Positions 1,718-48,184 are shown, counted from the first letter of the whole stretch. The stretch is DNA of 63,937 nt, filler included, from Candidatus Woesearchaeota archaeon (GCA_003695265.1; 4 parts of 4 records of this genome joined end to end with filler, not necessarily neighbours in it), one strand, 5' to 3'. Made by a program: numbers and translations. The notes: generated from the sequence alone by a model not told the origin.

Positions 1718-1876
1718 GGGGCCATAGTGTAGCTTGGCCATCATGTGATGGAGCAACTATCATACAAGCTCGGGGTTCATGGAGCAAGCATTTTGCTGGC
1801 TGTGACATGGACAGCTTGTGACCAGGGTTCAAAATAGGTTTTTGCAAGAAACCTGATGAAAATCCCTGTGGCCCCA
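1718..1876 (+). tRNA. tRNA-Pro (GGG, or CGG in an alternative register) with three introns: 1738-1756 (D-loop), 1776-1812 (37/38), 1834-1862 (59/60)
   Basis: Acceptor GGGGCCA/TGGCCCC+A, anticodon stem CAAGC/GCTTG, T-arm CAGGG-TTCAAA|T-CCCTG after removing BHB-bounded inserts. Confidence 0.85.
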
Positions 1877-1922
1877 CTTATCATCTTAGAAAAGTATATA
1901 AATAAGTCTAGCATTTAAAAAG

Positions 1923-3365
1923 ATGGTGGTACTGTTGAAAAAGCTTACATTCCCTTTGTTATTTGCCTTTTGCATTCTTGCTTTTAGTGCTGAGGCTGTT
2001 TTGGTTGCTGATCTTCAGCCAATAAACGCTGAGATTTTCCTGAATGAAACAGCAAAGTACAATTTAACAATCACAAATTTTGGAAATACTCCAGACCACT
2101 TTATTATCTACACGCAGGACCCTCGCTGGCATGTTTCCACAGAGCCAAAGGTCTCCCAGATTGCTGCTGGCGAAAAAACAATTACTACTTTGGAAATAAA
2201 GCCTTTAAGCGGTTTGAGGGAGCGCCTCCACATAGTAAACATTTACTTAAAGTCTACAATAACAACGCAGGTGATTGAAAAGAGCGTTGTTGTTAACATA
2301 AAATCAACGACACCTCCTGAGCCGAAGGAATACTTGCCCAGTGTGAAAATGGATGCTGAGATTTCTAATAATGGAAGGCTGGATCCAAGGGAGAAGGTTG
2401 TCTTGACACTCTTATTTGAGAATAGGAATTCTTTGAACATTGATAACCTTGAGATTCTCATTGACAGCAACCTAATAAAAGACGCGTCAACAACACAGCT
2501 TGGTCCTTTGGAGCAAAGAAAGAAAATATTTACTTTCGAGCTTGACCCTTACACAAAGCCGCAGGATGATTCGCTCACGATAATGGCTGTTGTTGGGAAC
2601 AGGACTGTAGCAACAATTGATAACATGCCACTGACCATCCTTCCGTACAGCCCTTTCTTTGAAAGGGAAAAAAAGGAAGAAAAAACGTTTTTGGCAAGCT
2701 TTCAGAAAATAACATTTAAGAACATTGGGAACGTTCCCAGAGAAGAAGACGTTAAAATAAGAACAAACCCGATAGTTGAGTTCTTTACAAAAACTTTCCC
2801 AAAGGCAAACTTGGAAAAGGAAAATGGTGAAACCTATTTTGTGTGGAACATAAATCTTGAGCCTAACAGTGAAACCAGTATTTTAATAAGCACTGATTAC
2901 CGCGGCTTGTTCTTCACTCTTTTGCTTATAATAATTATAATAATTTCTTATTACGTTTTCAGGAGCCCCCTTGTTGTTCAAAAGGAAGGGATTAAGATAG
3001 GGCAAACCGAGGGGGGATTGTCAGAACTAAAAATAATGATACACTTAAAGAATAGGAGTAGGCAGACAATAAACAACATACTTGTCACTGATAAGATTCC
3101 ACCTATTGTTGATATTATGCAGGAATCATATTTGGGCTCAATCAGCCCTAGCAAAGTGATAAAGCATGAGCACAAAGGATCAATACTTAAATGGAACATT
3201 GACAAGCTTGATTCATTAGAGGAAAGAATCATCTCATACAGGGTTAAGTTCAGGTTGAGTGTTGTTGGTGGGCTAAGGCTGGGGCCTTGCTTGGTGAATT
3301 ATTCTGTTGGTGAAGGTAAAGAGAGAAAACTAACTTCTAATTATTTAAGGGTCTTGTCTGAATAG
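1923..3365 (+). CDS. Secreted/membrane-anchored protein with Ig-like beta-sandwich domains
   Basis: N-terminal signal peptide, beta-rich repeats (NLTITNFGN, ITFKNIGN), one internal TM helix. Confidence 0.6.
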   Translation: MVVLLKKLTFPLLFAFCILAFSAEAVLVADLQPINAEIFLNETAKYNLTITNFGNTPDHFIIYTQDPRWHVSTEPKVSQIAAGEKTITTLEIKPLSGLRERLHIVNIYLKSTITTQVIEKSVVVNIKSTTPPEPKEYLPSVKMDAEISNNGRLDPREKVVLTLLFENRNSLNIDNLEILIDSNLIKDASTTQLGPLEQRKKIFTFELDPYTKPQDDSLTIMAVVGNRTVATIDNMPLTILPYSPFFEREKKEEKTFLASFQKITFKNIGNVPREEDVKIRTNPIVEFFTKTFPKANLEKENGETYFVWNINLEPNSETSILISTDYRGLFFTLLLIIIIIISYYVFRSPLVVQKEGIKIGQTEGGLSELKIMIHLKNRSRQTINNILVTDKIPPIVDIMQESYLGSISPSKVIKHEHKGSILKWNIDKLDSLEERIISYRVKFRLSVVGGLRLGPCLVNYSVGEGKERKLTSNYLRVLSE

Positions 3366-3694
3366 TGTTTGCTGAGAAAGAATAAAATACTAATAATAAA
3401 GACAGGGCCTGAAATAAATATCAGAGATAAAACGTTATTGTAAGTTTTAAAGAAAACAGTGAACGCGATGCCTAATATCATAAACGCTATTCCCCCAAAT
3501 AATTCTTTTCTCCATGAAACGCAAGCGCATATAGTTAATATTATGCTTGGTATTAAGTGTATAAGCAACGCAAAAAATATTTTTGGAAAGCCATAACCTT
3601 CTTCAAAAACATCCAGGGCAAACAGGCTGATAAATATAATGTATGTTATGGATAATATTCTTGGAGACCAATACAGAACCTTTTTTTTATTCAT
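3341..3694 (-). CDS. Small integral membrane protein (about 4 TM)
   Basis: 117 aa hydrophobic ORF with ATG start. Confidence 0.6.
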   Translation of the reverse strand: MNKKKVLYWSPRILSITYIIFISLFALDVFEEGYGFPKIFFALLIHLIPSIILTICACVSWRKELFGGIAFMILGIAFTVFFKTYNNVLSLIFISGPVFIISILFFLSKHYSDKTLK

Positions 3695-3800
3695 TTCTTC
3701 ATAATAGGTTGGGGTGAATTATATTATTATTGGCAAGTTTTTGTTTTTTATATTTTTCCAAAATCTTTATAAACATTCTGTAATTTTTGCTTCCTTAAGC

Positions 3801-3993
3801 CCCCCCGTAGCTTAGTGGCTAAAGCGTTCGGCTGTAGATTCATGGTGACGTTGCATTTTTTGCAGAGGATGAGGCCATGTCAGCCGTTACCGAAAGATCC
3901 CCGGTTCGAATACAGCGGTCTGAATCAGCGTTCAAAGGTTCTGAACTCAGAACGCTGTTTTGCAGACTGCTGGTGAAAATCTGGGCGGGGGGA
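3801..3993 (+). tRNA. tRNA-Tyr(GTA) with two introns: 3838-3888 (37/38) and 3911-3979 (59/60)
   Basis: Acceptor CCCCCCG/CGGGGGG+A (C1-G72, A73 archaeal Tyr identity), TTCGG-CT-GTA-G|A-CCGAA, CCCGG-TTCGAA|T-CTGGG. Confidence 0.9.
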
Positions 3994-4030
3994 CTTTCTT
4001 TATTTTTCTTATGTCAATTTTATACTAATT

Positions 4031-4324
4031 TTATATGATAGCTTCTAATTTTCCTGACTCGCCGCAGAAGAAAAACAAGTTGTTAATGTTTGGAAGAAGC
4101 TTTTTTATTTTTCGCAGTTGCTTTTTTGCTTTCAGAATTCTGTAGCTGCATTTTACCTCATATGCGTCATAGTCTTTTCCTTTCCTTGCAAGTATGTCTA
4201 TTTCTGCAACTTTTCTTTTGCGTTTAGAATAAAGCGGAATGTTGAGGATGATCTCATCATATTCAGATTTGATTATTTCGCAAAGGGCTTCCACATACCT
4301 ATCATGTTTTAGCTTTCTTGCCAA
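4031..4324 (-). CDS. Small PD-(D/E)XK nuclease-fold protein (YraN/Hjc-like); start uncertain (TTG 4324 or ATG 4390)
   Basis: Motif EIDILARK...YEVKCS. Confidence 0.65.
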   Translation of the reverse strand: MARKLKHDRYVEALCEIIKSEYDEIILNIPLYSKRKRKVAEIDILARKGKDYDAYEVKCSYRILKAKKQLRKIKKLLPNINNLFFFCGESGKLEAII

Positions 4325-4564
4325 CTTAAGCCACTTTATTATATATAAAACTATACTAATATATAAACTTTTATATAATTCAAAATTCATAAAAAACTTT
4401 TTTTAATAAATCCTCACTTTAAGAGGAAAGATAACCGCAAGATTTATAAAGAGAGAAAAACTTCTCAGCGGAATGGTCAAAGCACCCTTCTATAGCGCTA
4501 AAAACGCTTAATTGAGCTTTATTAGCAAATAGAGGGATTGCTAGCCATAATACAAAAAAATAAT

Positions 4565-4717
4565 GCCCTGGTAGTGTAGTTCGGCCTATCATGAAGCCCT
4601 GTCGTAGCCGTTTTAGACTCTATATGGCTTATCTGGCCTGGCTGAAGAAAGGCTTCGACCCGGGTTCGAAGAACATATGATCAAAAAGGTCAATGGTTGA
4701 AAGTCCCGGCCAGGGCG
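4565..4717 (+). tRNA. tRNA-Asp(GTC) with two introns: 4605-4649 (37/38) and 4671-4703 (59/60)
   Basis: GCCCTGG/CCAGGGC+G, AAGCC-CT-GTC-G|A-GGCTT, CCGGG-TTCGAA|T-CCCGG. Confidence 0.9.
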
Positions 4718-4725
4718 CTTCCCTT

Positions 4726-4953
4726 GGGCCGGTAGCTCAGCCTGGCAACGGGTTACGCTCCGTTAACGCGCAAAAGGAGACTCACATTTGTGAAGTCACC
4801 TACGCTCACTTCGGCCGCGTAATCCTTGGGCAACTAGAGCACTCGACTTTTATCATTGGCAGAAATCGAGTGGTCGCGGGTTCAAAAGCAGTAAGCATAA
4901 CGGCTTGCAGAACGCTGAAAAGCTGAGCGCTGATGAAAGTCCCGTCCGGCCCA
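4726..4953 (+). tRNA. tRNA-Lys(TTT) with three introns: 4746-4833 (D-loop), 4853-4864 (37/38), 4887-4939 (59/60)
   Basis: GGGCCGG/CCGGCCC+A, GCTC/GAGC D-stem, CTCGA-CT-TTT-A|A-TCGAG, GCGGG-TTCAAA|T-CCCGT. Confidence 0.9.
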
Positions 4954-4978
4954 TCATGATTATGAGGATATACCAAGA

Positions 4979-5218
4979 ATGGTAAAGAAATCAAAAATAA
5001 ACCACATCCTTGTGCCTGAGCACAAAAAACTCAGCGATAAAGCAAAGAAAGATCTTCTTGATAAATACAATATTACACTTAACGAGCTTCCAAGAATCCA
5101 CTTGTCTGACAGGGCAATATCACATCTTGAGCCAAAAGTTGATGATGTCATAATGATAATAAGGAAGAGTCCGACCGCAGGAGAATCCATATTTTACAGG
5201 AGGGTTGTGAATGAATAA
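4979..5218 (+). CDS. rpoH: RNA polymerase subunit H (Rpo5)
   Basis: HILVPEH...LPRI...IIRKSPTAGESIFYRRV; first gene of RNAP operon. Confidence 0.95.
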   Translation: MVKKSKINHILVPEHKKLSDKAKKDLLDKYNITLNELPRIHLSDRAISHLEPKVDDVIMIIRKSPTAGESIFYRRVVNE

Positions 5219-6698
5219 AGTTTCTTCTTTGCTTTTAAAAAAATACTTTGAAGAGAACGATTTGGTAAAATCAGACATTGAAAGCTTTAATCATTTTATT
5301 GAAGTTGAGCTGAACAAAATAATAGAAGAAAACAGGGAAATAGAACCAACTATAATACCTCACAACATTGACGAATTCAAGATAAGGCTTGACAAAATAT
5401 GGGTTACAAAGCCTGAGATTACAGAGGCTGACGGCTCAAAAAGGCCGATTTACCCAGTTGAGGCGAGGCTGAGAAAAATATCTTATTCTGCTCCAATATT
5501 CATTGAGGCAAGTTCTCACATTAATGGAATACAGCGAGAGTCTTTCACGACAAGAATAGGTAACATGCCTATAATGCTTAAGTCAAACAACTGCCATCTT
5601 AACAAGCTTAGCAGGGAGGAATTAATCCAGAAAGGCGAAGATCCTGACGATCTTGGGGGTTATTTCATAATTAACGGAACTGAGAAGGTTTTAGTAAACA
5701 TTGAAGACTTGGCAAGCAACAAATTCTTGGTTGAAAAAAACGTGACTGGGCCTAGCAAGTTCGTTGGCAAGATGTTCTCTGAGCGAGGATCTTTCAAAAT
5801 ACCCCACACTCTTGAGAGAATGAGAGATGGGTTGTTTTACTTGACATTCACAAGAGTGCAGAGAATGCCTGTAATATATATAATAAAGGCATTGGGCCTC
5901 GTGAAGGATGAGGACATAATGAAATTCGTGTCAGCAGACAAGCAATATGATGAAGTCCTAGTAAACCTTTACGAGTTTGTTGACATAAAAAGCGAGGAGG
6001 AAGCTCTTGACATACTCGCAAAGAAAATCGGCATTACACAGTCAAAGGAGGTAAGGCTTCAGAGGATGCAGGAAATTCTTGACAAGTACTTGTTGCCTCA
6101 TCTAGGCACTTCTCCTGAGGACAGAATATTTAAGGCTTACAATATATGTAAGATGATTAAGAAATATATCGAAGTTGCGAATGGCGAAGTAAGCACTGAT
6201 GATAAGGACCATTACATGAACAAGAGGTTAAAGCTGAGCGGTGACCTTCTTGCAGATCTTTTCCGCGTAAACCTAAAAGTCTTGATTGGAGACCTGCTTT
6301 ACAACTTCCAGAGAATTGTTAAGAGAGGGAAGTTTCCGTCAATTAAAGTCATAATTAGAGAAAAGCTTCTTACCTCAAGGATTTACAGCTCGATGGCAAC
6401 GGGAACTTGGGTTGGGGGCAGGAAAGGAATAAGCCAGAGAATTCAGCGCCTCAATTTCCTTAACACGCAGTCTCACTTGCAGCGCGTCGTGAGCCCGTTG
6501 TCAAGCTCGCAGGAAAACTTTGAGGCTCGCGAATTGCACCCAACGCATCTCGGCAGGTTGTGCCCTGTGGAGACTCCAGAAGGAACAAACATCGGCCTAA
6601 GAAAGAATTTGTCATTGCTGGCGAGCATTTCTGGAGATCTGGATGAAGATGAAGTGATCAAAGCCTTGAAGAATTATGGTTTGAAACCAATAAGATAA
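5211..6698 (+). CDS. rpoB2: RNA polymerase subunit B''
   Basis: GGYFIINGTEKV, CPVETPEGTNIGL. Confidence 0.95.
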   Translation: MNKVSSLLLKKYFEENDLVKSDIESFNHFIEVELNKIIEENREIEPTIIPHNIDEFKIRLDKIWVTKPEITEADGSKRPIYPVEARLRKISYSAPIFIEASSHINGIQRESFTTRIGNMPIMLKSNNCHLNKLSREELIQKGEDPDDLGGYFIINGTEKVLVNIEDLASNKFLVEKNVTGPSKFVGKMFSERGSFKIPHTLERMRDGLFYLTFTRVQRMPVIYIIKALGLVKDEDIMKFVSADKQYDEVLVNLYEFVDIKSEEEALDILAKKIGITQSKEVRLQRMQEILDKYLLPHLGTSPEDRIFKAYNICKMIKKYIEVANGEVSTDDKDHYMNKRLKLSGDLLADLFRVNLKVLIGDLLYNFQRIVKRGKFPSIKVIIREKLLTSRIYSSMATGTWVGGRKGISQRIQRLNFLNTQSHLQRVVSPLSSSQENFEARELHPTHLGRLCPVETPEGTNIGLRKNLSLLASISGDLDEDEVIKALKNYGLKPIR

Positions 6699-6715
6699 AA
6701 AACAATAAGATAAAA

Positions 6716-8518
6716 ATGGCTGAAGTATACCTTAACGGGAAATATGTTGGAACTGTTGAGAACAAAGAAGACTTTGTTGAAACATTAAGGCAGGAGAGAA
6801 GAAAAGGCAAAATTTCCAGAAACATTAACGTGTTAGAAGACTTTCAGACAGACAGCATATACATTGACAGCTCTCGCGGCCGAGTGAGAAGACCCCTAAT
6901 AGTTGTGAAAAACGGTCAGCCCCTGCTTACTGAGAAGCATGTTCAGCAACTTGAAAAAAATGAGATTTCATGGAGTGATCTAGTAAACCAGGGCGTAATA
7001 GAATACCTAGACGCTTCTGAAGAGGAGAATGCTCTTGTTGCTTTTTTCCCCGAGGATCTCACAGAAGAGCACACCCATCTTGAAATAACACCTCTTGCCA
7101 TGGTTGGATTATGCACCAGCCTGGTTCCTTTTGGGAACTTTAACCACGGGGTGCGCTTATTGCAGGGCTCAAAGAACCAGAAGCAAGCCCTAGGATTCTA
7201 CGCTGCCAATTACCCTGTCAGAATGGACATGGACGTGAATTTGCTTCACACACCCCAAATACCTATCGTAAAATCAGTCATGCATGAAATTTCTGCTTTT
7301 GACAAGCACCCCTGCGGACAAAACATCATTGTTGCAGTAATGGGCTATGAAGGTTATAACATGGAGGACGCTATTGTACTCAACAAAGGGTCGATAGAGC
7401 GCGGATTGGGAAGAAGCACTTATTACAGGCCCTCAATAACAGAAGAACTGAGGTACAGCGGTGGCCTAGTTGATGAGATCTGTGTTCCTGACAAAGACGT
7501 TAAGGGATACAGGTCAGAAAAAGACTACAGGTTCCTGGAGGATGATGGAATAATATTCCCAGAAGCAAAAGTGGATGCAGGTGATGTTATTATTGGAAAA
7601 ACCTCACCGCCAAGATTCTTAAGCAGCTTGGAGGAATACAACCTAAGCGCTTCTAGCAGAAGAGAAAGCTCTGTCGCTGTTAAGCACGGCGAAAAAGGAG
7701 TTGTTGATTTTGTCCTTATCACTGAAAACATGGAAGGTAACAAGTTAGTGCAGGTTCGCATAAGGGATGAAAGGATTCCTGAAATGGGTGACAAGTTCAC
7801 AAGCCGCCACGGGCAAAAAGGAGTTATCGGTTTAGTTGTTCCTCATGCTGAAATGCCGTTCACAGCATCAGGTATTGTACCTGACTTATTATTCAGCCCG
7901 CATGGCGTTCCTTCGCGTATGACAATATCCCACCTTATCGAGCTGGTTGGTGGGAAAGTTGGAGCTCTAAAAGGAGAATTCATCAATGGGACTATGTTTG
8001 AGTCAGAAAGCGAGGATGACATTAGAAAGGCTTTGAAAGAATTTGGTTTTCGTGAAAACGGCACAGAAACAATGTATAATGGTAGGACAGGTGAAAAATT
8101 CAAGGTTAAAATTTACGTTGGAAACATGTATTATCTGAAATTAAAGCACATGGTCGCGAACAAAATTCATGCTCGCGCCCGCGGCCCAATACAGTTGTTG
8201 ACAAGGCAGCCTACAGAAGGTCGCGCAAAGGAAGGTGGTCTGCGCTTAGGAGAAATGGAGAAAGACACTTTTGTTGCGCATGGCGCCTCATTACTGCTTA
8301 AGGAAAGGTTTGACTCTGACAGGACAGTCGTGCCTATATGCGAGTCTTGCGGACTAATAGCTGTTCACAACGAGTACAAAAACAAGTCGTACTGCCCTGT
8401 TTGTGGAGATAACGTTGAGATTAATAATATTGAGTTAAGTTATGCTTTCAAGCTCTTGCTTGATGAATTCAAAGCAATGGGCGTTTACCCAAAGCTTAAG
8501 CTTGAAAACAAGTACTGA
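6716..8518 (+). CDS. rpoB1: RNA polymerase subunit B'
   Basis: GYNMEDA, GDKFTSRHGQKG, GGLRLGEME, C-terminal zinc finger. Confidence 0.95.
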   Translation: MAEVYLNGKYVGTVENKEDFVETLRQERRKGKISRNINVLEDFQTDSIYIDSSRGRVRRPLIVVKNGQPLLTEKHVQQLEKNEISWSDLVNQGVIEYLDASEEENALVAFFPEDLTEEHTHLEITPLAMVGLCTSLVPFGNFNHGVRLLQGSKNQKQALGFYAANYPVRMDMDVNLLHTPQIPIVKSVMHEISAFDKHPCGQNIIVAVMGYEGYNMEDAIVLNKGSIERGLGRSTYYRPSITEELRYSGGLVDEICVPDKDVKGYRSEKDYRFLEDDGIIFPEAKVDAGDVIIGKTSPPRFLSSLEEYNLSASSRRESSVAVKHGEKGVVDFVLITENMEGNKLVQVRIRDERIPEMGDKFTSRHGQKGVIGLVVPHAEMPFTASGIVPDLLFSPHGVPSRMTISHLIELVGGKVGALKGEFINGTMFESESEDDIRKALKEFGFRENGTETMYNGRTGEKFKVKIYVGNMYYLKLKHMVANKIHARARGPIQLLTRQPTEGRAKEGGLRLGEMEKDTFVAHGASLLLKERFDSDRTVVPICESCGLIAVHNEYKNKSYCPVCGDNVEINNIELSYAFKLLLDEFKAMGVYPKLKLENKY

Positions 8519-8527
8519 GGAATAAAA

Positions 8528-12255
<3,728 letters not shown>

Positions 12256-12256
12256 T

Positions 12257-12541
12257 ATGGCAAAGAAAAAGGAATTGGGAGATGCAGAGAAAGAAATAAA
12301 GTCCTATTTAAAAACTAATAAATTAGTGCTCGGAAGCAAAGAAACCTTGAAATGTTTGCGCGCTTCTGCGTTGGAAAAGGTTTTTTTAGCCGCAAACTGC
12401 AGGCAAGACGTTTCTGAAGAAATAAGTCACCTTGCAAAACTGTCAGAAACTGACGTTGTTAAAATGAGGCATATTGATCAGGAAATGGGCGCACTATGCA
12501 AAAAACCGTACTCTATTTCTGTGATAGGCGTGAAAAAGTGA
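12257..12541 (+). CDS. rpl30e: 50S ribosomal protein L30e
   Basis: KLVLGSKETLK, LCKKPYSISV; conserved operon position. Confidence 0.85.
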   Translation: MAKKKELGDAEKEIKSYLKTNKLVLGSKETLKCLRASALEKVFLAANCRQDVSEEISHLAKLSETDVVKMRHIDQEMGALCKKPYSISVIGVKK

Positions 12542-12966: not shown

Positions 12967-13014
12967 AACATTTCCAAAAATTTTATAAATAAACCATAAT
13001 TCTCAGGTGTAATA

Positions 13015-13452: not shown

Positions 13453-13453
13453 A

Positions 13454-14047: not shown

Positions 14048-14091
14048 AAAAATCAAAATCTTAATAAACATCTGTTGTTATACATTTTTTT

Positions 14092-16213: not shown

Positions 16214-16313
16214 NNNNNNNNNNNNNNNNNNNNNNNNNNNNNNNNNNNNNNNNNNNNTTAATTAATTAANNNNNNNNNNNNNNNNNNNNNNNNNNNNNNN
16301 NNNNNNNNNNNNN
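16214..16313. other. Assembly gap/contig join with artificial linker
   Basis: N runs flanking TTAATTAATTAA (stops in all frames). Confidence 0.95.
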
Positions 16314-34817: not shown

Positions 34818-34869
34818 GCTCCCTCATATATGTAAATTGTTTTTTGTTTTATAAAACTTTTGAAAAAGC

Positions 34870-36623: not shown

Positions 36624-36624
36624 C

Positions 36625-37518: not shown

Positions 37519-37519
37519 T

Positions 37520-39022: not shown

Positions 39023-39465
39023 ATTACCCCTTTACCTCTCAGTATTATAATAACAATTACCATCAGAGTCAGCAAGATTAATCCGAACAAGCCAAGCTTC
39101 AAGTATTTTTGTTTCTTGGCAGAAGCATGGTTTTCATGCCCTTCTTCAAGACTTTTTAGGAAGGAACGGCCTATTATAGGATATGTGAACTTAAGCAAGC
39201 CCTCGTCGTCAAGTACTTTCGCGTATTCCTCTAATTTCTCAGGATTTATATTTAGGCGCTTCTCAAGCTCAAAAAGTGTTATTTTCTTGCTTTCCCTGAC
39301 AATCTTAAGTATTTTGTCAAGCTCGGTTTCCAAGAGTTCCCCCTCGGAAAACAGGCGCGGCTTTTCAGGCTTCTGGGTAATTTCCTTTTCTATTTTGCCT
39401 TTCAGCTTTGGAATAACAGCTTTTCTCTTGATTTGCGTTGCTCTGTCCAATAACCCCATTTTCAC
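39019..39465 (-). CDS. Pilus-locus accessory protein (wHTH-like, C-terminal TM)
   Basis: Translationally coupled to the ATPase; C-terminal hydrophobic helix. Confidence 0.55.
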   Translation of the reverse strand: MKMGLLDRATQIKRKAVIPKLKGKIEKEITQKPEKPRLFSEGELLETELDKILKIVRESKKITLFELEKRLNINPEKLEEYAKVLDDEGLLKFTYPIIGRSFLKSLEEGHENHASAKKQKYLKLGLFGLILLTLMVIVIIILRGKGVI

Positions 39466-40010
39466 TTCCTGCTCTTTACTTTAGGTTTTCTCATTTTTGT
39501 TTTCCCAACATTCTTTGCCTTCTTTACGGCTTTAGCCTTGTTCAGCTTCTTAGTAGGTTTTTTAGATGACCTCTTAACTTGTTTTTGTGGTGCAGAAACT
39601 TTCTCTTGCCCGTGTTTCTTCTGCTTTGCTTTTTCAAGAACCCTTTTGTAAAGCTCAAATTCAGGAGTCTCAACAAACCTTGCTATCTCCTCCTCTGGAA
39701 GCTTACCTAGCAACTCATCAACAACAAGCAAAACCCTTCTGAAATCCTCATCCATGAAATCATGTTCTGCCTTATTGCTCTCCTTGACGTTTCTGAAAGC
39801 TTCCTCCACCTCTTTTTTGTCATGGCCGTCTTCCTCCAACACTTTTATGATGCTGTCCTTGGAGAAACCTTCTTTTATGGATTCCTCCACGAACTTTGGA
39901 AGCTCATCCCCTTGTTTTTGCAAATGCTTCTTCTTGTATTCTAAGAAAAACACATAGAAAACTATGAAAATGATGATTAAGCTGCATATCTGTATTAATA
40001 TTTCGAGCAT
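39462..40010 (-). CDS. Pilus-locus accessory protein (N-terminal TM, Lys-rich tail)
   Basis: Coupled to next gene; basic C-terminus. Confidence 0.55.
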   Translation of the reverse strand: MLEILIQICSLIIIFIVFYVFFLEYKKKHLQKQGDELPKFVEESIKEGFSKDSIIKVLEEDGHDKKEVEEAFRNVKESNKAEHDFMDEDFRRVLLVVDELLGKLPEEEIARFVETPEFELYKRVLEKAKQKKHGQEKVSAPQKQVKRSSKKPTKKLNKAKAVKKAKNVGKTKMRKPKVKSRK

Positions 40011-40078
40011 GTTAACCCCTATGAGTAAAAACTTAGCGTAATCATTTATTAATTCTATTTTACATTTTGAAATAGTAA

Positions 40079-40720
40079 CTAATCCTCCCAGACAATTTCA
40101 GCTTTTTTGTCAAGAGAAGCTACGCCGGCAGCTCCTGAACCTTTTTTCCCACCGATTAATCTTTCAAAAGAATCATTGAAAAGCTTTTGATTGTTGCTAA
40201 GTTCTTTTTGCAACGTGCAGTTTTCTGTAAACACACCTATTATGAAATTCCTTTGGAAAACAGAAGTTTCTGAAGGCAGCTCATCATCCTCATCTCCTGC
40301 TCCTTGCTGGTCCTCTTCGCTCCACCATTCAGTCATCAAATCTGATTTTAATTTGCCTTTGCTTTTTGAGCTTACAAACAGCTTTCCCTCATCATAGTCA
40401 TCAACGAACACTTCAAACTCATAATCATAATCCTCATTGTTGGCAACAAAAACAAATATTTCATCGTCTGCTCTTGTCTTCGTCATCTTGTGGTCAAGCT
40501 CATAGCTGACAATAACATTTGACGGGCAGGGCTTATCACTATTAGCAGGTTCTTTAACACGTTTTTCAGGAACCTCTTGTTTTGGGCTGCCAGGCGTGTT
40601 GTCATGAAGATTAATTTCGTGATTTATCAATGAAGAAGAATAAATTATTGCTAGCAAAATAACTATTAATCCAGCCGCAGCAAAATAGGTTTTCTTGTTA
40701 TCCTTATTATTTTTATTCAT
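40079..40720 (-). CDS. Membrane-anchored acidic hypothetical protein
   Basis: N-terminal TM, AGGTGG RBS upstream. Confidence 0.5.
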   Translation of the reverse strand: MNKNNKDNKKTYFAAAGLIVILLAIIYSSSLINHEINLHDNTPGSPKQEVPEKRVKEPANSDKPCPSNVIVSYELDHKMTKTRADDEIFVFVANNEDYDYEFEVFVDDYDEGKLFVSSKSKGKLKSDLMTEWWSEEDQQGAGDEDDELPSETSVFQRNFIIGVFTENCTLQKELSNNQKLFNDSFERLIGGKKGSGAAGVASLDKKAEIVWED

Positions 40721-40732
40721 TTTGCCACCTTT

Positions 40733-41012
40733 TTAAGACCTTATAACAAGTTTTATGTTGTCGAAGTAAGCCCCGAAGCCCTCTTCGCGTTTGTCCCAGT
40801 CTCCTATGAAAGCTCCGAAGTCAAGATAATAAGCTCCGACCTGCGTTATGTAAGACGTTACATTGAAAACCTCATAGCCCGAGTCGTCAGATGGGTTGTT
40901 CATAAAATAAATTTCGTTGTAAGGGTCAGCGTCATTATCGCCGGAGTCAAGGTCAGAGCCAAGCCACACAACCTGCGAAGGAGTTGTTAAGCGGGCCTTA
41001 ACCCAAGCCTCA
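40733..41012 (-). CDS. C-terminal fragment of an extracellular beta-sandwich protein, truncated by gap
   Basis: Ends AYFDNIKLVIRS, typical of jelly-roll domain ends; frame runs toward the gap. Confidence 0.45.
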
Positions 41013-41112
41013 NNNNNNNNNNNNNNNNNNNNNNNNNNNNNNNNNNNNNNNNNNNNTTAATTAATTAANNNNNNNNNNNNNNNNNNNNNNNNNNNNNNNN
41101 NNNNNNNNNNNN
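41013..41112. other. Assembly gap/contig join with artificial linker
   Basis: N runs flanking TTAATTAATTAA. Confidence 0.95.
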
Positions 41113-41157
41113 CTCTAACTAATAACTTTTTTAAACTACTAATCATATTCTTTTATT

Positions 41158-42387
41158 ATGCGACTAACATGCCCTTTATGCAAAGAACCATTCTCTTTAA
41201 ACTGCAAGAGAAGGGAATGTCCTGTAATGGCAAAAGTGAAATCAATGCTCATAACAACAAAAAGACTTGAGAGCGAGAACTACTTCGGAAGCTCTCCAGC
41301 TCCTTTCGTCGGCAGGTTTAACTACCCGAACATCAGCGTAGGCATCCTAAGCCCTCCAGAGCAGAGAGAAGACTCATGGCTTTTGGACGCGCCGACTTAC
41401 TGGGCAGAAAACAATTACACCATTGACCGGATAATAGGCCTGCGCTCCAGCCTCATAAACTCGAACTTCAAAGCCCATGTGAAAAACAGGACAAAACTTC
41501 TTGAGATAAGCCAGGAAGTCGGAATGGCATCTAAGCCAGTTGACGTCGAGATTAATCTTGAAAAAAAGCCGAGATTCCATTTCACAGCCCAGCCGAACAT
41601 AACTCCTATAGGTCCCACGGCAAAACTAAGAAAAGCCGAGATAACAAGCAACCCTAAAATAGCGAAAAAAGTCGATTACGTTGTGTCTGACACTGACTTA
41701 AAGGCAGAAGAAGGTCTAGTTTACCTTTATGAAAAAGGGTTTGACGAAAACTTTTTGAGCAAGCTCCTCTCAGTAGCGAACCTCGGACTAAAATCCAACA
41801 GGAAGCTCGTGCCGACGAGGTGGAGCATAACAGCGACAGACGACACTCTTGGAAAAAACATAATAAACGAAATCAAACAATACGATGAAAGCGACTTCAT
41901 GGCGTACTTTGGTGGCTTTCTGGGCAATTATTACTTCGTAATGTTCTTCTCAGACGTGTGGAGCTATGAACTCTTTGAAATAGACACCTCAACATTCTCG
42001 CCGAAAAAAAAGAACTGGTGGACTGATTATGAGAGCTACGACGGAAGAAAAAACTACGCGAGCTCCACTATCGGAGGGTATTACGCTGCAAGGCTTCCAA
42101 TCCTGAACAGGCTGAAAAATCTTAGGCGCCAGGCAAGCGTTCTAGCTTTGAGGTTTGTCACGTCAGACTATTACGCGCCTCTCGGAGTGTGGGTTGTCCG
42201 CGAAGCAACAAGAAAAGCGATGATGAGCAAGCCCATAATTTTCGAGGACAAAGATTCTATGCTGAGATACGCGAAAGAATTTGTTCATCACAGATTTCAA
42301 ATAAACGCGGACGTGATATTTAGGGAAAGCAAATTGTTAAACAATCTCAGGGCTCAGACAAAGCTCAACGCGTTCTTCAGTCGATAA
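41158..42387 (+). CDS. nreA: Archaeal DNA repair protein NreA (PCNA-interacting)
   Basis: N-terminal Cys cluster, FVGRFNYP, KLVPTRWSITATD, PLGVWVVRE, C-terminal PIP box QTKLNAFF. Confidence 0.9.
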   Translation: MRLTCPLCKEPFSLNCKRRECPVMAKVKSMLITTKRLESENYFGSSPAPFVGRFNYPNISVGILSPPEQREDSWLLDAPTYWAENNYTIDRIIGLRSSLINSNFKAHVKNRTKLLEISQEVGMASKPVDVEINLEKKPRFHFTAQPNITPIGPTAKLRKAEITSNPKIAKKVDYVVSDTDLKAEEGLVYLYEKGFDENFLSKLLSVANLGLKSNRKLVPTRWSITATDDTLGKNIINEIKQYDESDFMAYFGGFLGNYYFVMFFSDVWSYELFEIDTSTFSPKKKNWWTDYESYDGRKNYASSTIGGYYAARLPILNRLKNLRRQASVLALRFVTSDYYAPLGVWVVREATRKAMMSKPIIFEDKDSMLRYAKEFVHHRFQINADVIFRESKLLNNLRAQTKLNAFFSR

Positions 42388-42466
42388 ACTATTCTATTTG
42401 TGAGAATAAATATTTAAGAAAAAAAATCCTAAAACTATTTAAATAGGCTCAACTACCTAAGATTTT

Positions 42467-43258
42467 ATGAAGAAAGCAGTTGTTCTGATTATTTCTCTCT
42501 TTGCAATAATCAGTGTTCATGCTGCTGAAACAGAGAACGCCAACAGCCTAATCGAGACGTGCGCCTCCACAGGAGGAATAACGAACGAAGAGAAGCTGAG
42601 CGAGGAAAACGGGATTGCCAGCATAAAGGTTGAGTGCAGGTGCCCTCCAGGCTATTGGTGGAGCTACACTCTTGGGTGTGTTAAAGGAGAAAGAATTCTT
42701 TTGTGCGAGAACCTGGAAGTTGGCAGCGGCTCATCACACAATTGCGCTAGTAACATAAAAGATGTTAAGAGGCTGCTGAGCAAGGAAGACTTTAACTCGG
42801 TCAGCGTTGAAGGAAGCTACGCGGACCCCGAGGACAAGCTCTGGGACGGGCTTTTCTTTTACGCAGGCAAACTCCCAGAGAACCCAACACTCGAAATATA
42901 TGTTAGCCCTTCGCCAAACGCAAAAATAAAGCCGTCAATGCTTTATGTTATAGGTGACTTAAACACAGGAGAATTCACTCACAAGATAAAAGATGTTGTC
43001 GTGGACAAGAGGGAGAAAGTCAGCATAAACGTTTCCGAATACCTGAATAGCGGCGGCAGGGCTTTTCTTATAATGCCGAACCCTGCAGGAAGCGCATTCA
43101 ACATTGACAAGATAAGTTTCAAAGGAGTCGAGATAAAAACAGAAGAAAAAAAGGAAACCAACAACTTAGACGTTCTAATACCAGCAACTTTATTCCTGCT
43201 CGCGTGCCTGGCAGTCATTTACGCTGCTTCGCACTTTCTCATGAGGAAAACTTCTTAA
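42467..43258 (+). CDS. Secreted, C-terminally anchored Cys-containing surface protein
   Basis: Signal peptide, CRCPPGYWW..C, C-terminal TM. Confidence 0.55.
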   Translation: MKKAVVLIISLFAIISVHAAETENANSLIETCASTGGITNEEKLSEENGIASIKVECRCPPGYWWSYTLGCVKGERILLCENLEVGSGSSHNCASNIKDVKRLLSKEDFNSVSVEGSYADPEDKLWDGLFFYAGKLPENPTLEIYVSPSPNAKIKPSMLYVIGDLNTGEFTHKIKDVVVDKREKVSINVSEYLNSGGRAFLIMPNPAGSAFNIDKISFKGVEIKTEEKKETNNLDVLIPATLFLLACLAVIYAASHFLMRKTS

Positions 43259-45761
43259 ACTCATTCAGTTCTCTCAAAAAACGAGAGGCTGTCTTCACGA
43301 CGTGCTCTGGCTGCGTGCTGAATATCTCAGCAACTCTTGCTAATACATCACCATCATACTTCTCAGATGAGGAAAGCTCATAATCTGCTTCCTCAAGCTT
43401 TTTTCCTTTCTTCCTCGCCTTTCTCGCTTTCTTCCACTTTGCGAAAAGCTCTTCTGCCCTTGCCGGCACAACCTCAGGAGGAACGCCGAAAAGTTTTGCC
43501 AGCTCCTCAACCATGACTTCCCCTTTTTGGTACGCTTTCCTTGCTGCCATTCCCGCAGCGAACTCTATTCTTACAATGCCGTCCTGAATCTTGCTAGTCT
43601 TTAAGATGGTGATGCGCTCAGCTTCTCCGGTTAATTTAAGATGGGTTCCGCCGCAAGCCTCAACATCCAACCCCTTTATTTCTATGACGCGCACGCTCTT
43701 TCCAGGAACAAAGCCGCCCTGGTAAAGAATAAAACCATACTTTTTCTCTGCAACATCTTTTGGAAGAACATAACTGTTCACAGGAAGGTTTAACTGTATC
43801 ACCTTGTTTGCTTCCTCCTCAATAAACCTGATTTCCTCAGGAGAAAGCTTTTCATAATGAGTTATGTCAAGCCTTGCCTTGCTAAGAGACTTTGAAGCTC
43901 CTGCCTGCCAGACGTGGTTTCCGAGCAACTTTCTCGCAACGCCGTTTATTATGTGGGTTGCGGTGTGGTGCTGCGCCAATTGCAGCCTTCTCTCAAAATC
44001 AATCTTTCCTTTTACGAGCATGCCTCTCCTCAAGCCTTCAACTGACTCAAGCCTGTGGACTATTAGGTTTCCATGCTTTAACACTTCCTCAACTCTAATC
44101 CCATTTAAGGTTCCTGTGTCGTGAAGCTGGCCTCCAGAAGTAGGGTAAAAAGCTGTTTTGTCAAGGACTACAAGATCCCTCTTAACTGCAAGCACAACCG
44201 CTTCGAACTCTGTGAGGTCATAGTGCTCGTAATAAAGTATTTTCGTGTCCGGCAAGTCACCAAAATCAACGTCTAATTCCTTTCTCGTCTGCGTAGCCTG
44301 CTGCTTGTTTTCATGGAGAGATGCGACTCTCGCATAGAAATTGTCAGGAACACTTAGTTTTTTGCCATTCTTCTCAAACTCTTCCTTGATGAAATCAGGG
44401 CTTATGCCATGACTGTCATACAACTCAACAAGCTTTTTCTCATCAATTCTTGAAAGCCTTGAAACAATATGCCTGCTTCTCTCTATTGTTTCCTTAAATT
44501 TTCTTCTCTCTACCTCAAGGATTTTTTCGACTTCATTCAGATTCTTTCTCAACTCAGGAAACAGGGGTTTTAGGTAAGAAGCATGCCACTCGCACACTTC
44601 CGGCAATGAAATCTGCCATTCATATTTATTTATGAAAGACAGCGCCCTGCGAAGAATCATTCTCAAATTGTAGCCTCCGCCTACATTGCTCGGCAGAACG
44701 CCGTCTGTAAGAGCAACCAAAAGCGCGCGGGAGTGCTCTGCAACTGAATAAAGAGCAGCCAAAGGAAGAATCTCTCTCTTCAGCTCAGATATTCCTAGAC
44801 CCACTTTTTTGCTTACAGCACCCCACGCCTTTTCTGCATCCTCAACCTCATCAACGTTCAAGTAAGAAGCATGGGGAAGGAAATCTCGCATTATCTCCAT
44901 GTCCGCTTTAACTCCTGTTTTAGCATGAAGCTTCTTCATAACTGTTGGGAAAGTTGTTTCATAACTTGTTGATGATGCTTTTGTGAACCACGCAAACCTT
45001 TCATGGCCAGCGCCCATGTCCAAAACCTTTATGTTCAGTTCTTTATATCCTTTTGGAGTCTGCGAATAAAACATGTACACCTGGTTGCCTAATTCTAACC
45101 CTCTTGAGAAGAATTCCATGCACGGCCCGAAGTTTCCGCCGCCGGCCCAAGCGTCCTCATGATAAATTATTTCATCTTTTGGTATTCCCATCCCTCTGAC
45201 GAGCCAGTCATGGATGTCCTCAAAATACTTTTTCTGATTGTACTCTTTCGGCGGCATGAAGGCGTGCTGGCCAATCATAACAAATCCTGTGTAGTGCGCT
45301 CCTGTAATCCCAACATTATCAATGTCATTGAACCTTAAGCAGAACTGCGGAACAACCAAAGGGTTTGCAGGCGGCTTCACCTCACCGGAAACAACGAAAG
45401 GCTGAAAGTCGTAAATGCTTGCTTGAACGAAATCAGTGTCGTCCCGCCAGCGGGCCGCAACAGGATACCTTGGGATTGGAGTGTAACCTTTTTTCCTGAA
45501 CATCGAGGCAAAAGCTTTCCAGGCTCCGATGTAATCAAAGCTTTTCTTCGCAGGACTGTTCCCAATAAATCGGTAGCCTCCCGAGCAAGCAGGGTCACCG
45601 CACACTTCTGATTTTTCTGTACTCCAAAAATAAGTGCCGCATTTAACGCATTTATGCCTGGAAAACCCATGCTCTTTCAGAACAGATGTTGCGTAATAAT
45701 CATCAGGATTCCTGCTTGCCTTAAGCTTAAACTCCCTCTTAATCTCCTTATCAGCCTTCAT
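43239..45761 (-). CDS. alaS: Alanyl-tRNA synthetase (archaeal type)
   Basis: RYPVAARWRDD, WAGGGNFGPC, editing HHTATH and ACGGTH. Confidence 0.95.
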   Translation of the reverse strand: MKADKEIKREFKLKASRNPDDYYATSVLKEHGFSRHKCVKCGTYFWSTEKSEVCGDPACSGGYRFIGNSPAKKSFDYIGAWKAFASMFRKKGYTPIPRYPVAARWRDDTDFVQASIYDFQPFVVSGEVKPPANPLVVPQFCLRFNDIDNVGITGAHYTGFVMIGQHAFMPPKEYNQKKYFEDIHDWLVRGMGIPKDEIIYHEDAWAGGGNFGPCMEFFSRGLELGNQVYMFYSQTPKGYKELNIKVLDMGAGHERFAWFTKASSTSYETTFPTVMKKLHAKTGVKADMEIMRDFLPHASYLNVDEVEDAEKAWGAVSKKVGLGISELKREILPLAALYSVAEHSRALLVALTDGVLPSNVGGGYNLRMILRRALSFINKYEWQISLPEVCEWHASYLKPLFPELRKNLNEVEKILEVERRKFKETIERSRHIVSRLSRIDEKKLVELYDSHGISPDFIKEEFEKNGKKLSVPDNFYARVASLHENKQQATQTRKELDVDFGDLPDTKILYYEHYDLTEFEAVVLAVKRDLVVLDKTAFYPTSGGQLHDTGTLNGIRVEEVLKHGNLIVHRLESVEGLRRGMLVKGKIDFERRLQLAQHHTATHIINGVARKLLGNHVWQAGASKSLSKARLDITHYEKLSPEEIRFIEEEANKVIQLNLPVNSYVLPKDVAEKKYGFILYQGGFVPGKSVRVIEIKGLDVEACGGTHLKLTGEAERITILKTSKIQDGIVRIEFAAGMAARKAYQKGEVMVEELAKLFGVPPEVVPARAEELFAKWKKARKARKKGKKLEEADYELSSSEKYDGDVLARVAEIFSTQPEHVVKTASRFLRELNEFKKFSS

Positions 45762-45817
45762 ACACTAATCTGAATAATATGAGATATAAAAAGGTTATGA
45801 AAAAAAGAAAGATTATC

Positions 45818-46315
45818 TTATGTTATGCAAAGGTATCCTATATTACTACCGTCGCCGTTCCAAAAATTATACAATTCTCTTCTTATGCCTTGGTCACATA
45901 TAAGGTTATCACCAGCATCGCAATGGGATTGGCCCCAAGAAGAGCATGATCCAGGGTAGCTTGTCTCTACAGTGCCACCTCCAAGGACAAGCCCGTTAGA
46001 AGAGCCTGTCTGGTCATCCCTGCATAGCAGAACTCCATCGTCTCGGACGCCGTAAACATACTGGTTTGCAGAACAATTACTTCCTATGTCCTTTTGAAAA
46101 TAGTTTGTGTCGTGCCCGTCAAGGAGGTCAGCGTCCAGCCCGGATCCAAAGCCGTCATTATTGCTATGCCAGATAGTTCCTGGAAAATCACCTATCTCAC
46201 TCCAGCTGTGCCCAGGGTTTGGCGCTGTTGCAATAACAATTCCAATGCCAACCAAAGCAATCATCAAAGCAAGCAAGTAAAGGTGCTTTTTCTCAATGTT
46301 TATCTCAATTTTCAT
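45818..46315 (-). CDS. Small surface protein with tail-fibre-like GSGLDADLLDG motif
   Basis: N-terminal TM, IWHSNNDGFGSGLDADLLDG, Cys-rich C-terminus. Confidence 0.55.
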   Translation of the reverse strand: MKIEINIEKKHLYLLALMIALVGIGIVIATAPNPGHSWSEIGDFPGTIWHSNNDGFGSGLDADLLDGHDTNYFQKDIGSNCSANQYVYGVRDDGVLLCRDDQTGSSNGLVLGGGTVETSYPGSCSSWGQSHCDAGDNLICDQGIRRELYNFWNGDGSNIGYLCIT

Positions 46316-46381
46316 AGGGAATCACCTTTTTTTGTCAATAAAATACTTTTATGAACATAGAAACATAAATAATTTTTGTTT

Positions 46382-47452
46382 TTACTTGTCTGCTTCGTAA
46401 TTCTCCAGGCTTGTGTTGAGCTGCCTGTGCACCATTATGAAGGTTGTCCTTCTTGAGAACTCCTTAAGCCTGCGCGCCCCAATGTAAGTTGCGGTGCTTC
46501 TCAGGCTGCCCAAAAGGTCAAGAACAAAATCATTAACATCACCTTTGTAAGGGATTAAAGTGTACCTTCCTTCCACTGCGCGGTATTTCTCAACTTTGCC
46601 GTAATGCCTTTTCATAGCAACGTCAGAAGAAGAGCCGTAGTATTCCTTGTATTTTTTCCCATTCTTCACTATTAACTTCCCTCCAGACTGCTTGAATCCA
46701 GAGAACAATGCGCCCGACATAATAAAATCAGCGCCAGCGCCGAACGCCTTTGCTAGGTCTGCGGGATACCTTAACCCGCCGTCAGTCATTATTAAGCCGA
46801 CGCCGACTGTGTTGCTTATTCCGTGAGCAGCGTCAGCGCATTCAATGGTTGCGCTTAATTGCGGATAGCCAACGCCTGTTTTTCTCCTTGTCAAGCACAT
46901 GCTTCCAGGGCCTATGCCTATCTTTACAATGTCTGCGCCGCTAAGCAGAAGCTCTTCAGTCATCTCATTAGTCACAACATTTCCCGCTATGATGGTATGC
47001 CTCGGCAGCAATTTCCTCAGCTCTTTAAGCTTTCCCACAACAACCTCCAAGTAAGCGTTCGGAACGTCTAAGCAAACAAAATTAAAGTATTTGTGCAAGC
47101 CTTTCTTCATAACTTCCCTGAGCTTCTTAAAATCATCATCCCTTATGCCCAGGCAATACGAGATGTAATCAGGATTGTTGAATTTCGGAAGAAATTTTTC
47201 CAACTCCTTCACTGAGTAAAACTTATGGAGAACCGTGAGCATCTTGTATTTTGAAAGCTCTTTGGCCATTTCAAACGTGCCGCAGGAATCCATGTTAGAA
47301 GTAGCTATAGGAATCCCCTTCCAGGTGCGGTGGCTGTGGATAAACTTAAACTCTCTTTCAAGAACAACGTCAGCCCTGCTCACCAATGTGCTTCTTTTCG
47401 GCCTTATAAGCACGTCATCAAAGTCAAGCTTAGGATCATTATCAATTCTCAT
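46382..47452 (-). CDS. guaC: GMP reductase (E. coli GuaC-type)
   Basis: KLDFDDVLIRPKRSTL, KIGIGPGSMCLTR, GVGYPQLSA, no CBS domain. Confidence 0.9.
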   Translation of the reverse strand: MRIDNDPKLDFDDVLIRPKRSTLVSRADVVLEREFKFIHSHRTWKGIPIATSNMDSCGTFEMAKELSKYKMLTVLHKFYSVKELEKFLPKFNNPDYISYCLGIRDDDFKKLREVMKKGLHKYFNFVCLDVPNAYLEVVVGKLKELRKLLPRHTIIAGNVVTNEMTEELLLSGADIVKIGIGPGSMCLTRRKTGVGYPQLSATIECADAAHGISNTVGVGLIMTDGGLRYPADLAKAFGAGADFIMSGALFSGFKQSGGKLIVKNGKKYKEYYGSSSDVAMKRHYGKVEKYRAVEGRYTLIPYKGDVNDFVLDLLGSLRSTATYIGARRLKEFSRRTTFIMVHRQLNTSLENYEADK

Positions 47453-47567
47453 AAAGCAACCCCCCCAAACTGCTCGCGTTTAAGTATTATTATACTTTTC
47501 GGTGTGAATGGTTAAAAGTCCGAATTTCTTATACTAAGCTTTTTTAATTATTCTTGAATAGGATTTT

Positions 47568-48032
47568 ATGATGTTTAACTTAAAAAAATACAAAGGAACA
47601 TTTAAAGGATTAATCGGAGAATACATGTTTAAGCTTACTGATGACAAATTAATAATAACAAAGTCTTATAACAGATCCAAATTTTTTAGAACTTTTTCTA
47701 GATTAAATTCAAAACAAAGAAATTTTTTGTATGAAAATTGGTTTTCTATTGATGGAATAAAATTTGAGAACGGGAAAATAGTCTTGTATGAGATAAAAAC
47801 CAGAAATAAATACAATAACAAACTTCATTTTAAGCCAAAAACAACAAGGAGAACTCATGAAATGTATCAAGAAGCAAAACAATTAGGGTTCGTGGTGAAG
47901 TTGGTTACTGTTTGGTTATGCAAAAATTGGGATTTTGAGGTTGAAATGCAGGATTTCAGCGAAAAATACTATTATGTTGACAAAGAGAAGAAGTATGACA
48001 TGGGTTATAAGAAACATTATGCGGGCTATTAA
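47568..48032 (+). CDS. Small PD-(D/E)XK nuclease-fold protein, AT-rich
   Basis: KGLIGE...SIDG...LYEIKTR motif pattern. Confidence 0.6.
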   Translation: MMFNLKKYKGTFKGLIGEYMFKLTDDKLIITKSYNRSKFFRTFSRLNSKQRNFLYENWFSIDGIKFENGKIVLYEIKTRNKYNNKLHFKPKTTRRTHEMYQEAKQLGFVVKLVTVWLCKNWDFEVEMQDFSEKYYYVDKEKKYDMGYKKHYAGY

Positions 48033-48043
48033 TTGAAAATTAA

Positions 48044-48184
48044 TAGCCCCGCCCGGATAAGCGTGCAGTGAAGGAACCTCCCGACTTAGGCTTCAAACCT
48101 GCATTTCGAACCGAGGTCCCAGGACCCAAAATCCTGGATGATTTGCCCAACCAAAAAGCTGATTGGCCACTACACCACGGGGCT
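48044..48184 (-). tRNA. tRNA-Gln(TTG) with two introns: 48142-48162 (D-loop/D-stem junction) and 48058-48104 (59/60)
   Basis: Minus strand AGCCCCG/CGGGGCT+A, CAGGA-TT-TTG-GG-TCCTG, CTCGG-TTCGAA|T-CCGGG. Confidence 0.88.

Follow-up and report, generated by a model that had tools for sequence, protein, structure and literature searches.

Introduction

How could tRNAs be obtained from genes that are each interrupted two or three times, and why does one position of the T-loop carry an insert in every one of them? This question is raised by a window of 63,937 nucleotides (nt), i.e., the whole stretch of DNA analyzed here, from the genome of Candidatus Woesearchaeota archaeon (GCA_003695265.1), in which the genes for tRNA-Pro, tRNA-Tyr, tRNA-Asp, tRNA-Lys, and tRNA-Gln carry 12 inserts. 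The five genes are highly likely to be single-copy and presumably working tRNA genes, and the two or three inserts in each are read as introns of the archaeal type, for which excision by the tRNA splicing endonuclease EndA and joining of the exons by RtcB are predicted.

The window consists of four non-contiguous contigs joined by N runs, namely C22 (1-16213), C23, C25 (41113-57470), and C31. The joints (16214-16313, 41013-41112, and 57471-57570) each comprise two 44-base N runs flanking 12 bases, and features were therefore not read across them. The Pro, Tyr, Asp, and Lys genes are placed on C22 and the Gln gene on C25. The assembly, referred to as G000, amounts to 1.06 Mb in 103 contigs and is 94.6% complete. 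Published work is cited by PubMed Central number, and each citation refers to passages of the paper named.

tRNA genes and inserts of the window

The tRNA genes were located by a scan that required an acceptor stem of 7 bp, a T-stem of 5 bp, and TTCRA but tolerated a T-loop insert, and by a second scan from the D-arm side. The GC-rich candidates of the first scan were exactly the Pro, Tyr, Asp, Lys, and Gln genes, and no additional tRNA gene was found in the window by the D-arm-side scan, ARAGORN, or Rfam. To obtain the insert bounds, the D-arms and anticodon arms were positioned and all equivalent boundaries were compared, and the inserts were removed by coordinates. All five genes spliced in silico were called by ARAGORN without intron mode, with scores of 117.6-126.2 and the anticodons GGG, GTA, GTC, TTT, and TTG, and the exons rebuild normal cloverleaves. 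A first-pass annotation of this DNA had described five genes with 12 inserts of 12-88 nt whose removal restores the cloverleaf, and the number, size, and placement of the inserts all held. Introns account for 48-67% of gene length across the five genes, and the final exon measures 14 nt in each. Identity features read from the sequence include C1:G72 in Tyr, G73 in Asp, and A1:U72 in Gln. The 5' and 3' 20-mers of each of the five genes are unique in the genome, so that no second copies were found there.

Four of the genes lie on the plus strand. tRNA-Pro(GGG) (1718..1876) covers positions 1-73 with no encoded CCA, and its exons of 20, 19, 21, and 14 nt are separated by a D-loop intron of 19 nt after G19 (1738..1756), an anticodon-loop intron of 37 nt at 37/38 (1776..1812), and a T-loop intron of 29 nt at 59/60 (1834..1862). 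tRNA-Tyr(GTA) (3801..3993; exons of 37, 22, and 14 nt) has a C1:G72 pair and carries 51 nt at 37/38 (3838..3888) and 69 nt at 59/60 (3911..3979), the latter with an inner hairpin of 10 bp. tRNA-Asp(GTC) (4565..4717; exons of 40, 21, and 14 nt) has a discriminator G and contains introns of 45 nt at 37/38 (4605..4649) and 33 nt at 59/60 (4671..4703). tRNA-Lys(UUU) (4726..4953; exons of 20, 19, 22, and 14 nt) starts 8 nt 3' of Asp and is interrupted by 88 nt in the D-loop after G19 (4746..4833), 12 nt at 37/38 (4853..4864), and 53 nt at 59/60 (4887..4939). The minus-strand gene tRNA-Gln(UUG) (48044..48184; exons of 22, 37, and 14 nt) carries a D-loop intron of 21 nt (~48142..48162), whose boundary slides over 48139-48164 because AATCA is repeated, and a 59/60 intron of 47 nt (48058..48104).

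Splice motifs

At the 59/60 site of Pro, Tyr, Asp, and Lys, the sequences around both junctions can form a bulge-helix-bulge. The outer helix is the 5-bp T-stem, T54-R57 (TTCA in Pro and Lys, TTCG in Tyr and Asp) pairs with the intron TGAA at 4/4 positions, and the two 3-nt bulges read A58-A59↓N and A-(A/G)↓T60 (arrows mark the splice sites), i.e., AA↓A and AA↓T in Pro and AA↓G and AG↓T in Asp. The Gln T-loop has a relaxed version (TTCG/CGCT, 2/4 paired) with a 5-bp inner helix. The D-loop introns of Pro and Lys pair 4/4 in GCTT/GAGC and GCCT/GGGC helices, respectively, with bulges GG↓C and AA↓C in both, and the best motif at the Gln D-loop intron pairs 3/4, without an outer helix. Central helices at 37/38 pair 3/4 in all four introns, i.e., in Pro, Tyr (CTGT/GCCG), Asp (with a 5-bp inner helix), and Lys. 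By sequence, the strict bulge-helix-bulge is thus present in four of five T-loop and two of three D-loop introns of the window, and in the Pro T-loop intron the whole motif is present in the minimum-energy fold. The first-pass annotation had proposed the TTCR/TGAA helix with 3-nt bulges in four genes and a relaxed form in Gln, the D-loop helices and bulges of Pro and Lys, and mismatched central helices at 37/38, and each of these pairings was recovered. Relaxed bulge-helix-bulge-like pairs occur by the hundreds per gene (207 in Pro and 306 in Tyr); being common by chance, a relaxed motif alone is therefore no evidence.

Introns across the genome

The genome-wide census identified 38 tRNA genes (35 complete genes and three more, two of them truncated where a contig stops and one whose T-loop is unusual), of which 26 carry a 59/60 insert. 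No intron-less tRNA gene occurred among the 38 found in the 1.06 Mb assembly, which likewise contains no intact copy of the five isoacceptors free of introns; the presence of such copies, together with a lack of spliced reads, is what the first-pass annotation had named as a sign of pseudogenes. The 35 complete genes contain 64 introns, or 1.83 per gene; the T-loop and 37/38 account for 24 each, and the D region for the other 16. Among the T-loop inserts, 22 of 24 pair 4/4, most of them ending in TGAAAG↓T, compared to about 1.5% expected from base composition for full 4-mer pairing with TTCA. At 37/38, seven of 24 inserts pair 4/4 and 16 pair 3/4, so that 17 of 24 are mismatched. The T-loop intron had been called universal, which applies to all five genes of the window but not to the genome (26 of 38), and the suggested genome-wide invasion of the T-loop is borne out for most genes, not all.

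The strict gene scan returned 30 loci in the real genome, whereas three shuffled genomes gave none. The genome scans missed about ten isoacceptors, namely Trp, Ala-UGC, Val-GAC, Leu-CAG, Ser-GCU, three for Arg, and one or two CAU genes. A loosened scan returned 275 rows, which were mostly false. Two loci, C27:3216-3391 and C98:12531-12661, were both modelled as tRNA-His(GTG), and the D-region insert of the C98 locus, 56 nt in length, fits the motif poorly.

The expectation that standard annotators miss these genes proved correct. In the window, ARAGORN with default settings found none of the five genes and the Rfam tRNA model one, namely Tyr (36.5 bits), where the match is interrupted by 54 nt in the anticodon loop and by 70 nt in the T-loop. 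Genome-wide, ARAGORN made five default calls, all of them misread intron-bearing genes, and Rfam gave eight above-threshold matches of 54-98 nt, all insert-bearing or partial. The intron mode of ARAGORN, applied to the unspliced genes, read Pro as Lys and Asp as Tyr and missed Lys, with similar results genome-wide. Ordinary finders report almost no tRNAs in this genome and in many of its relatives, and inferences on completeness and codon usage of these DPANN genomes can therefore be wrong.

Relatives within the genome were found for just two of the 12 window introns. The Tyr T-loop intron shares 31 nt at 90% identity with the T-loop intron of the initiator tRNA on C89, and the Lys D-loop intron (4746-4833) matches the D-loop intron of tRNA-Ile(GAT) at the same site (C13:16826-16914) in two segments, one of 29 nt with 100% identity and one of 44 nt with 89%. 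None of the large repeated intron-hairpin families of the genome occurs within the window. An 86-nt intron is also present in tRNA-Lys(CUU) on C76, at the same D-loop site as in Lys(UUU).

Occurrence across the order

Judged from its sequences, the source organism is a Woesearchaeota-type DPANN archaeon. The closest relatives of its EndA share 61-76% identity and all derive from metagenome-assembled genomes, most of which are labelled Candidatus Woesearchaeota, Nanoarchaeota, or Nanoarchaeia; among the other relatives, many are labelled "uncultured Methanosarcinales" and a few just "archaeon". The window DNA was matched in one public DNA run, a hot-spring metagenome. The source genome is the sole member of its family, and comparisons within the order were made with genomes of other families.

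The 59/60 signature was defined as GTTCRAA-N(8-135)-TGAAAGTCC, with the reversed pattern as control. Of 121 genomes from the order, 87 gave a match, the highest number (16) being that of the source genome. As the reversed control also gives one or two matches in many genomes, only multiple matches were counted. At least three matches occurred in 46 of 121 genomes compared to 4 of 121 with the reversed control, and in 45 of 120 without the unpublished genome G120. Of 18 matches checked in G079 and G044, 15 fell in tRNA genes of many different isoacceptors that carry an insert at 59/60. Outside the order but within the class, matches were obtained in 4 of 14 genomes, one or two in each, which is not clearly above background. 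Rfam tRNA matches ranged from 0 to 41 across 40 genomes of the order, each from a different family. The 59/60 signature recurs across the order.

Uninterrupted sites were found in orthologues for six of the 12 window inserts, exactly at the predicted positions. For tRNA-Pro(GGG), orthologues were identified in six further genomes, among which the D-loop intron is missing in three (G009, G066, and G096), the 37/38 intron in one (G009, with the uninterrupted loop TCGGGGA), and the T-loop intron in three (G087, G066, and G099). The G009 gene, without D-loop and 37/38 inserts, reads ...TCAT-T-CCAGC-TCGGGGA-GCTGG..., and covariation is present in the anticodon stem of the Pro orthologues. All four Tyr orthologues have the 37/38 intron and none has the T-loop intron. 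In the Lys orthologue of G066, query bases 1-20 abut ~110-161, so the D-loop intron is missing. The Gln orthologue of G044 has an uninterrupted D-arm and, at 59/60, a 44-nt intron ending in TGAAAG↓T. Asp introns at both 37/38 and 59/60 occur in three families (including those of G079 and G044), with conserved exons and differing inner hairpins. Intron presence and absence among the Pro, Tyr, Lys, and Gln orthologues, together with the copies across unrelated tRNAs, makes gain and loss traceable within one order.

The 37/38 intron of Tyr ends in CAGCCG (CAGCTG in G009) across all five genomes, as compared by eye. Being complementary to CGGCTG at exon bases 29-34, this end would be a competitor of the anticodon stem.

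These comparisons bear on whether the inserts could instead have been left by small mobile DNA elements in tRNA pseudogenes that are redundant or in decay, with the working tRNAs encoded elsewhere or imported from a host. Some intron families are indeed repeated in the genome, about 5% of the genome is missing, and DPANN archaea depend on hosts. Yet the exons show no damage and are shared by different families, in contrast to the diverging introns, no intron-less tRNA gene of any kind and no second copies were found in the 1.06 Mb, and EndA and RtcB are both intact. Selection for a splice site is further shown by TGAA, which hardly varies and stands at the distance required (22 of 24 T-loop inserts), and this pseudogene reading is accordingly considered very improbable.

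A proposed portable splice site in the T-loop

Read as introns, the inserts would be cut from the precursor by the one EndA of the genome, and the exons would be rejoined by the RtcB ligase. At 59/60, T54-T55-C56-R57 would pair with the intron-terminal UGAA; A58-A59 and the first intron base would form one 3-nt bulge, A-G and U60 the other, and the 5-bp T-stem would serve as outer helix. The site would thereby copy the geometry of the canonical 37/38 site, i.e., a 5-bp stem and a 7-nt loop with the cut following loop base six. Since hardly any tRNA deviates from TTCR, a single intron end, UGAAAG, would build a spliceable site in any of them, and this portability is likely why 26 of 38 genes came to be filled at 59/60. 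A helix at 37/38 would have to use anticodon bases, and it is mismatched there (3/4). Gains of introns are likely ongoing, since none of four orthologues has the T-loop intron of Tyr, which resembles the initiator-tRNA intron of the same genome.

The first-pass annotation had suggested that T-loop introns possibly mask attachment (att) sites. On this view they would be kept as a protection, the split T-arm and 3' half denying viruses and integrative elements their usual target. A general tRNA-protection hypothesis is already in print and is attributed to Randau and Soll 2008 in a passage of PMC4033280. The T-loop is split at 59/60 in all five window genes and in 26 of 38 genes of the genome, and the integrase search gave a single tyrosine-recombinase match in the genome, so that no obvious integrated elements are seen. 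Against protection, however, stand the twelve genes without a T-loop intron and the orthologues, which gain and lose this intron freely. In addition, a second partial and slightly degenerate 3' end lies ~80-100 nt downstream of Pro both in G033, where the Pro T-loop intron is present, and in G066, where it is absent, which argues that 3' ends are still hit or duplicated. A portable site, moreover, requires no benefit to the host. We regard protection as an unlikely reason for the abundance of T-loop introns.

The downstream copy in G033 is preceded by TGAAAG. Such a copy resembles a 3' exon that was duplicated when an insertion took place.

The splicing endonuclease

A single EndA gene (C17:456-1028) encodes 190 amino acids (aa) with PF02778 and PF01974 in one frame (101 bits for PF01974), and RtcB is present (587 bits). 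From the relaxed sites, an (alpha-beta)2 or epsilon2 endonuclease had been expected. This was not supported: one alpha-type EndA was found, with no paralogue and without the loops of Nanoarchaeum or ARMAN. The search for a paralogue or beta subunit in the genome gave one PF01974 match (four candidates scored) and one six-frame phmmer hit at E<0.5; as the solved beta subunit NEQ261 matches this EndA at 2.6e-14, a beta homologue should be detectable. Neither the separate beta gene of an (alpha-beta)2 enzyme nor the three-unit protein of ~390 aa with the ARMAN loop of an epsilon2 enzyme was found, and the gene content corresponds to that of an alpha4 enzyme, i.e., one gene of ~180 aa with both domains and no second subunit gene in a 94.6% complete genome. 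On this basis, EndA is predicted to be alpha4-like.

The protein is collinear with the alpha4 enzyme of M. jannaschii (1A79) over residues 44-190, with no insert in the aligned part. Its best solved match is the catalytic subunit NEQ205 of N. equitans (PDB 3IEY chain A; E 1.9e-39), from whose loop 90-98 it is missing six residues, and gaps fall at the specificity-loop positions in the alignment with the ARMAN-2 chain 4FZ2. The loop positions were taken from PMC3488258, and the alignments covered no crenarchaeal chain over the N-terminal region, the place of the crenarchaeal loop. Among 23 Woesearchaeota-type EndAs, the catalytic Tyr, His, and Lys columns and Trp187 are invariant, and RG(I/V)KPGEDH is essentially so (one I/V position). 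The N-terminal tail (residues 1-45, C17:456-590) is Lys-rich and basic in 23/23, with no conservation of its sequence, and has no counterpart within the aligned portions of the enzymes from N. equitans and M. jannaschii.

Several points weigh against reading the inserts as introns that this enzyme removes. Alpha4-type EndAs are said to cut only strict motifs (PMC3239211, PMC3488258, PMC5829648), yet 16 of 24 introns at 37/38 pair 3/4 in a genome whose alpha4-like EndA is without known specificity loops, and both Gln introns fit the motif poorly. Minimum-energy folds with the full stem, helix, and two bulges were obtained for six of 24 T-loop and none of 24 37/38 inserts genome-wide. For the Pro 37/38 intron, RNAalifold on the six orthologues favours a helix of the two intron ends, which spans both splice sites and contains two covarying pairs. 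The G57/A57 difference is not compensated, as TGAA is retained and a G-U pair results. With 103 contigs and 94.6% completeness, the part missing from the assembly could also contain additional tRNA copies or the gene of a beta subunit.

The introns may also be real yet recognised by more than a plain alpha4 EndA, either through an undetected partner or through Trp187 or the Lys-rich tail widening specificity. The mismatches in 17 of 24 introns at 37/38, the poor Gln introns, and the lack of a known specificity loop in EndA favour this reading. Trp187 is invariant in 23/23, and according to PMC3488258 this Trp occurs elsewhere in alpha subunits of broad specificity; the tail is Lys-rich in all 23 proteins, although its sequence is not conserved. 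A partner is opposed by the lack of any EndA paralogue by Pfam models or six-frame phmmer. Wider recognition is thus possible, if somewhat doubtful, and it would refine the splicing of the inserts by EndA and RtcB rather than contradict it.

Taken together with the census, it is quite conceivable, and here proposed tentatively, that 59/60 is a second "canonical" intron site in Woesearchaeota-type archaea, between whose tRNAs introns hop by means of the portable UGAAAG, and that this process is complete in the present genome, where all genes found are interrupted (~1.8 introns per gene) and are served by a plain alpha4-like EndA without the specificity loops of ARMAN and Nanoarchaeum. If true, such an enzyme would run against the view that specificity loops are needed for heavy disruption of tRNA genes.

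Further observations in the window

Position 33 of tRNA-Pro(GGG) is C (loop UCGGGGA, 1770-1776) and not the near-universal U33. TCGGGG also occurs in the Pro orthologues of six other families, one of them without an intron in the loop, and C33 is therefore an order-wide conserved trait and not an assembly error. An alternative register of the Pro anticodon arm (anticodon CGG, 39-nt intron, and 3-nt variable loop) scored 118.3 in ARAGORN compared to 117.6, and was rejected because the G009 orthologue, without an intron at this position, reads CCAGC-TCGGGGA-GCTGG.

The Tyr, Asp, and Lys genes are clustered (3801-4953), and the spacing of only 8 nt between Asp and Lys suggests that the cluster is probably a single transcript. 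Tyr and Lys genes likewise lie within 1 kb on one contig in G087 (C52:795-1769). By eye and against the archaeal TATA consensus, a TATA-like box TTTATAAA was noted on the plus strand at 3766..3773, 28-35 nt 5' of tRNA-Tyr, and a TATA-like sequence TTATAAAT at 1681-1688, 5' of tRNA-Pro. Weak Rfam matches to C/D-box sRNAs, e.g., 1833-1888 on the minus strand (E 5.3), were at chance level. A sixth tRNA candidate starting at 47886 (+) was rejected, as it is without a T-arm and overlaps a coding end.

Comparison with known systems

Introns at 59/60, tRNA genes with multiple introns, and their link to the type of EndA are already established (PMC3239211, PMC3488258, PMC5829648, PMC8450103), and what stands out here is the intron density, the dominance of one portable site, and the simple accompanying enzyme. 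Literature searches turned up no description of 59/60 introns in Woesearchaeota other than PMC5829648 (Kaneta et al. 2018), nor any report of this site being dominant there. That paper covered a Woesearchaeote, reported incomplete tRNA sets needing manual curation, and may already list intron positions for Woesearchaeota in its Figure 7 or supplements.

The closest parallel in intron load is provided by the Thermoproteales, in which up to three bulge-helix-bulge-type introns per gene occur in the D-, anticodon-, and T-loops and related introns are found across different tRNAs. Pyrobaculum calidifontis, with 71 introns in 46 genes or 1.54 per gene, is quoted as the maximum (PMC8450103). The present genome differs from these in belonging to DPANN archaea and not to Crenarchaeota, in its 1.83 introns per gene, in the lack of any intron-less gene among those found, and in having 24 of 64 introns at the single site 59/60. 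Thermoproteales furthermore have an (alpha-beta)2 EndA with the crenarchaeal loop, in contrast to the single alpha-type gene found here.

ARMAN-2 (Ca. Micrarchaeum) is also a DPANN archaeon with introns at T-loop 59/60, and those of its pre-tRNA-Cys and pre-tRNA-Pro were shown in vitro to be cut by an epsilon2 EndA (PMC3239211, PMC3488258). According to the same sources, 56% of its tRNA genes are disrupted and its three-unit EndA of 395 aa has a loop, whereas all genes found in the present genome are disrupted and its EndA measures 190 aa.

A single alpha-type gene together with many disrupted tRNA genes is the combination that PMC5829648 describes for DPANN archaea with alpha4-type EndAs. This paper credits the Nanoarchaea/ARMAN loop (L3), six residues of which are missing from the present EndA in comparison to NEQ205. 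The catalytic residues and the C-terminal Trp are common to both proteins. NEQ205, however, has a shortened N-terminal domain and needs the structural subunit NEQ261, while the present EndA has a full PF02778 N-terminal domain and no NEQ261-like gene was found in the six-frame search of its genome.

[quoted passage not shown]

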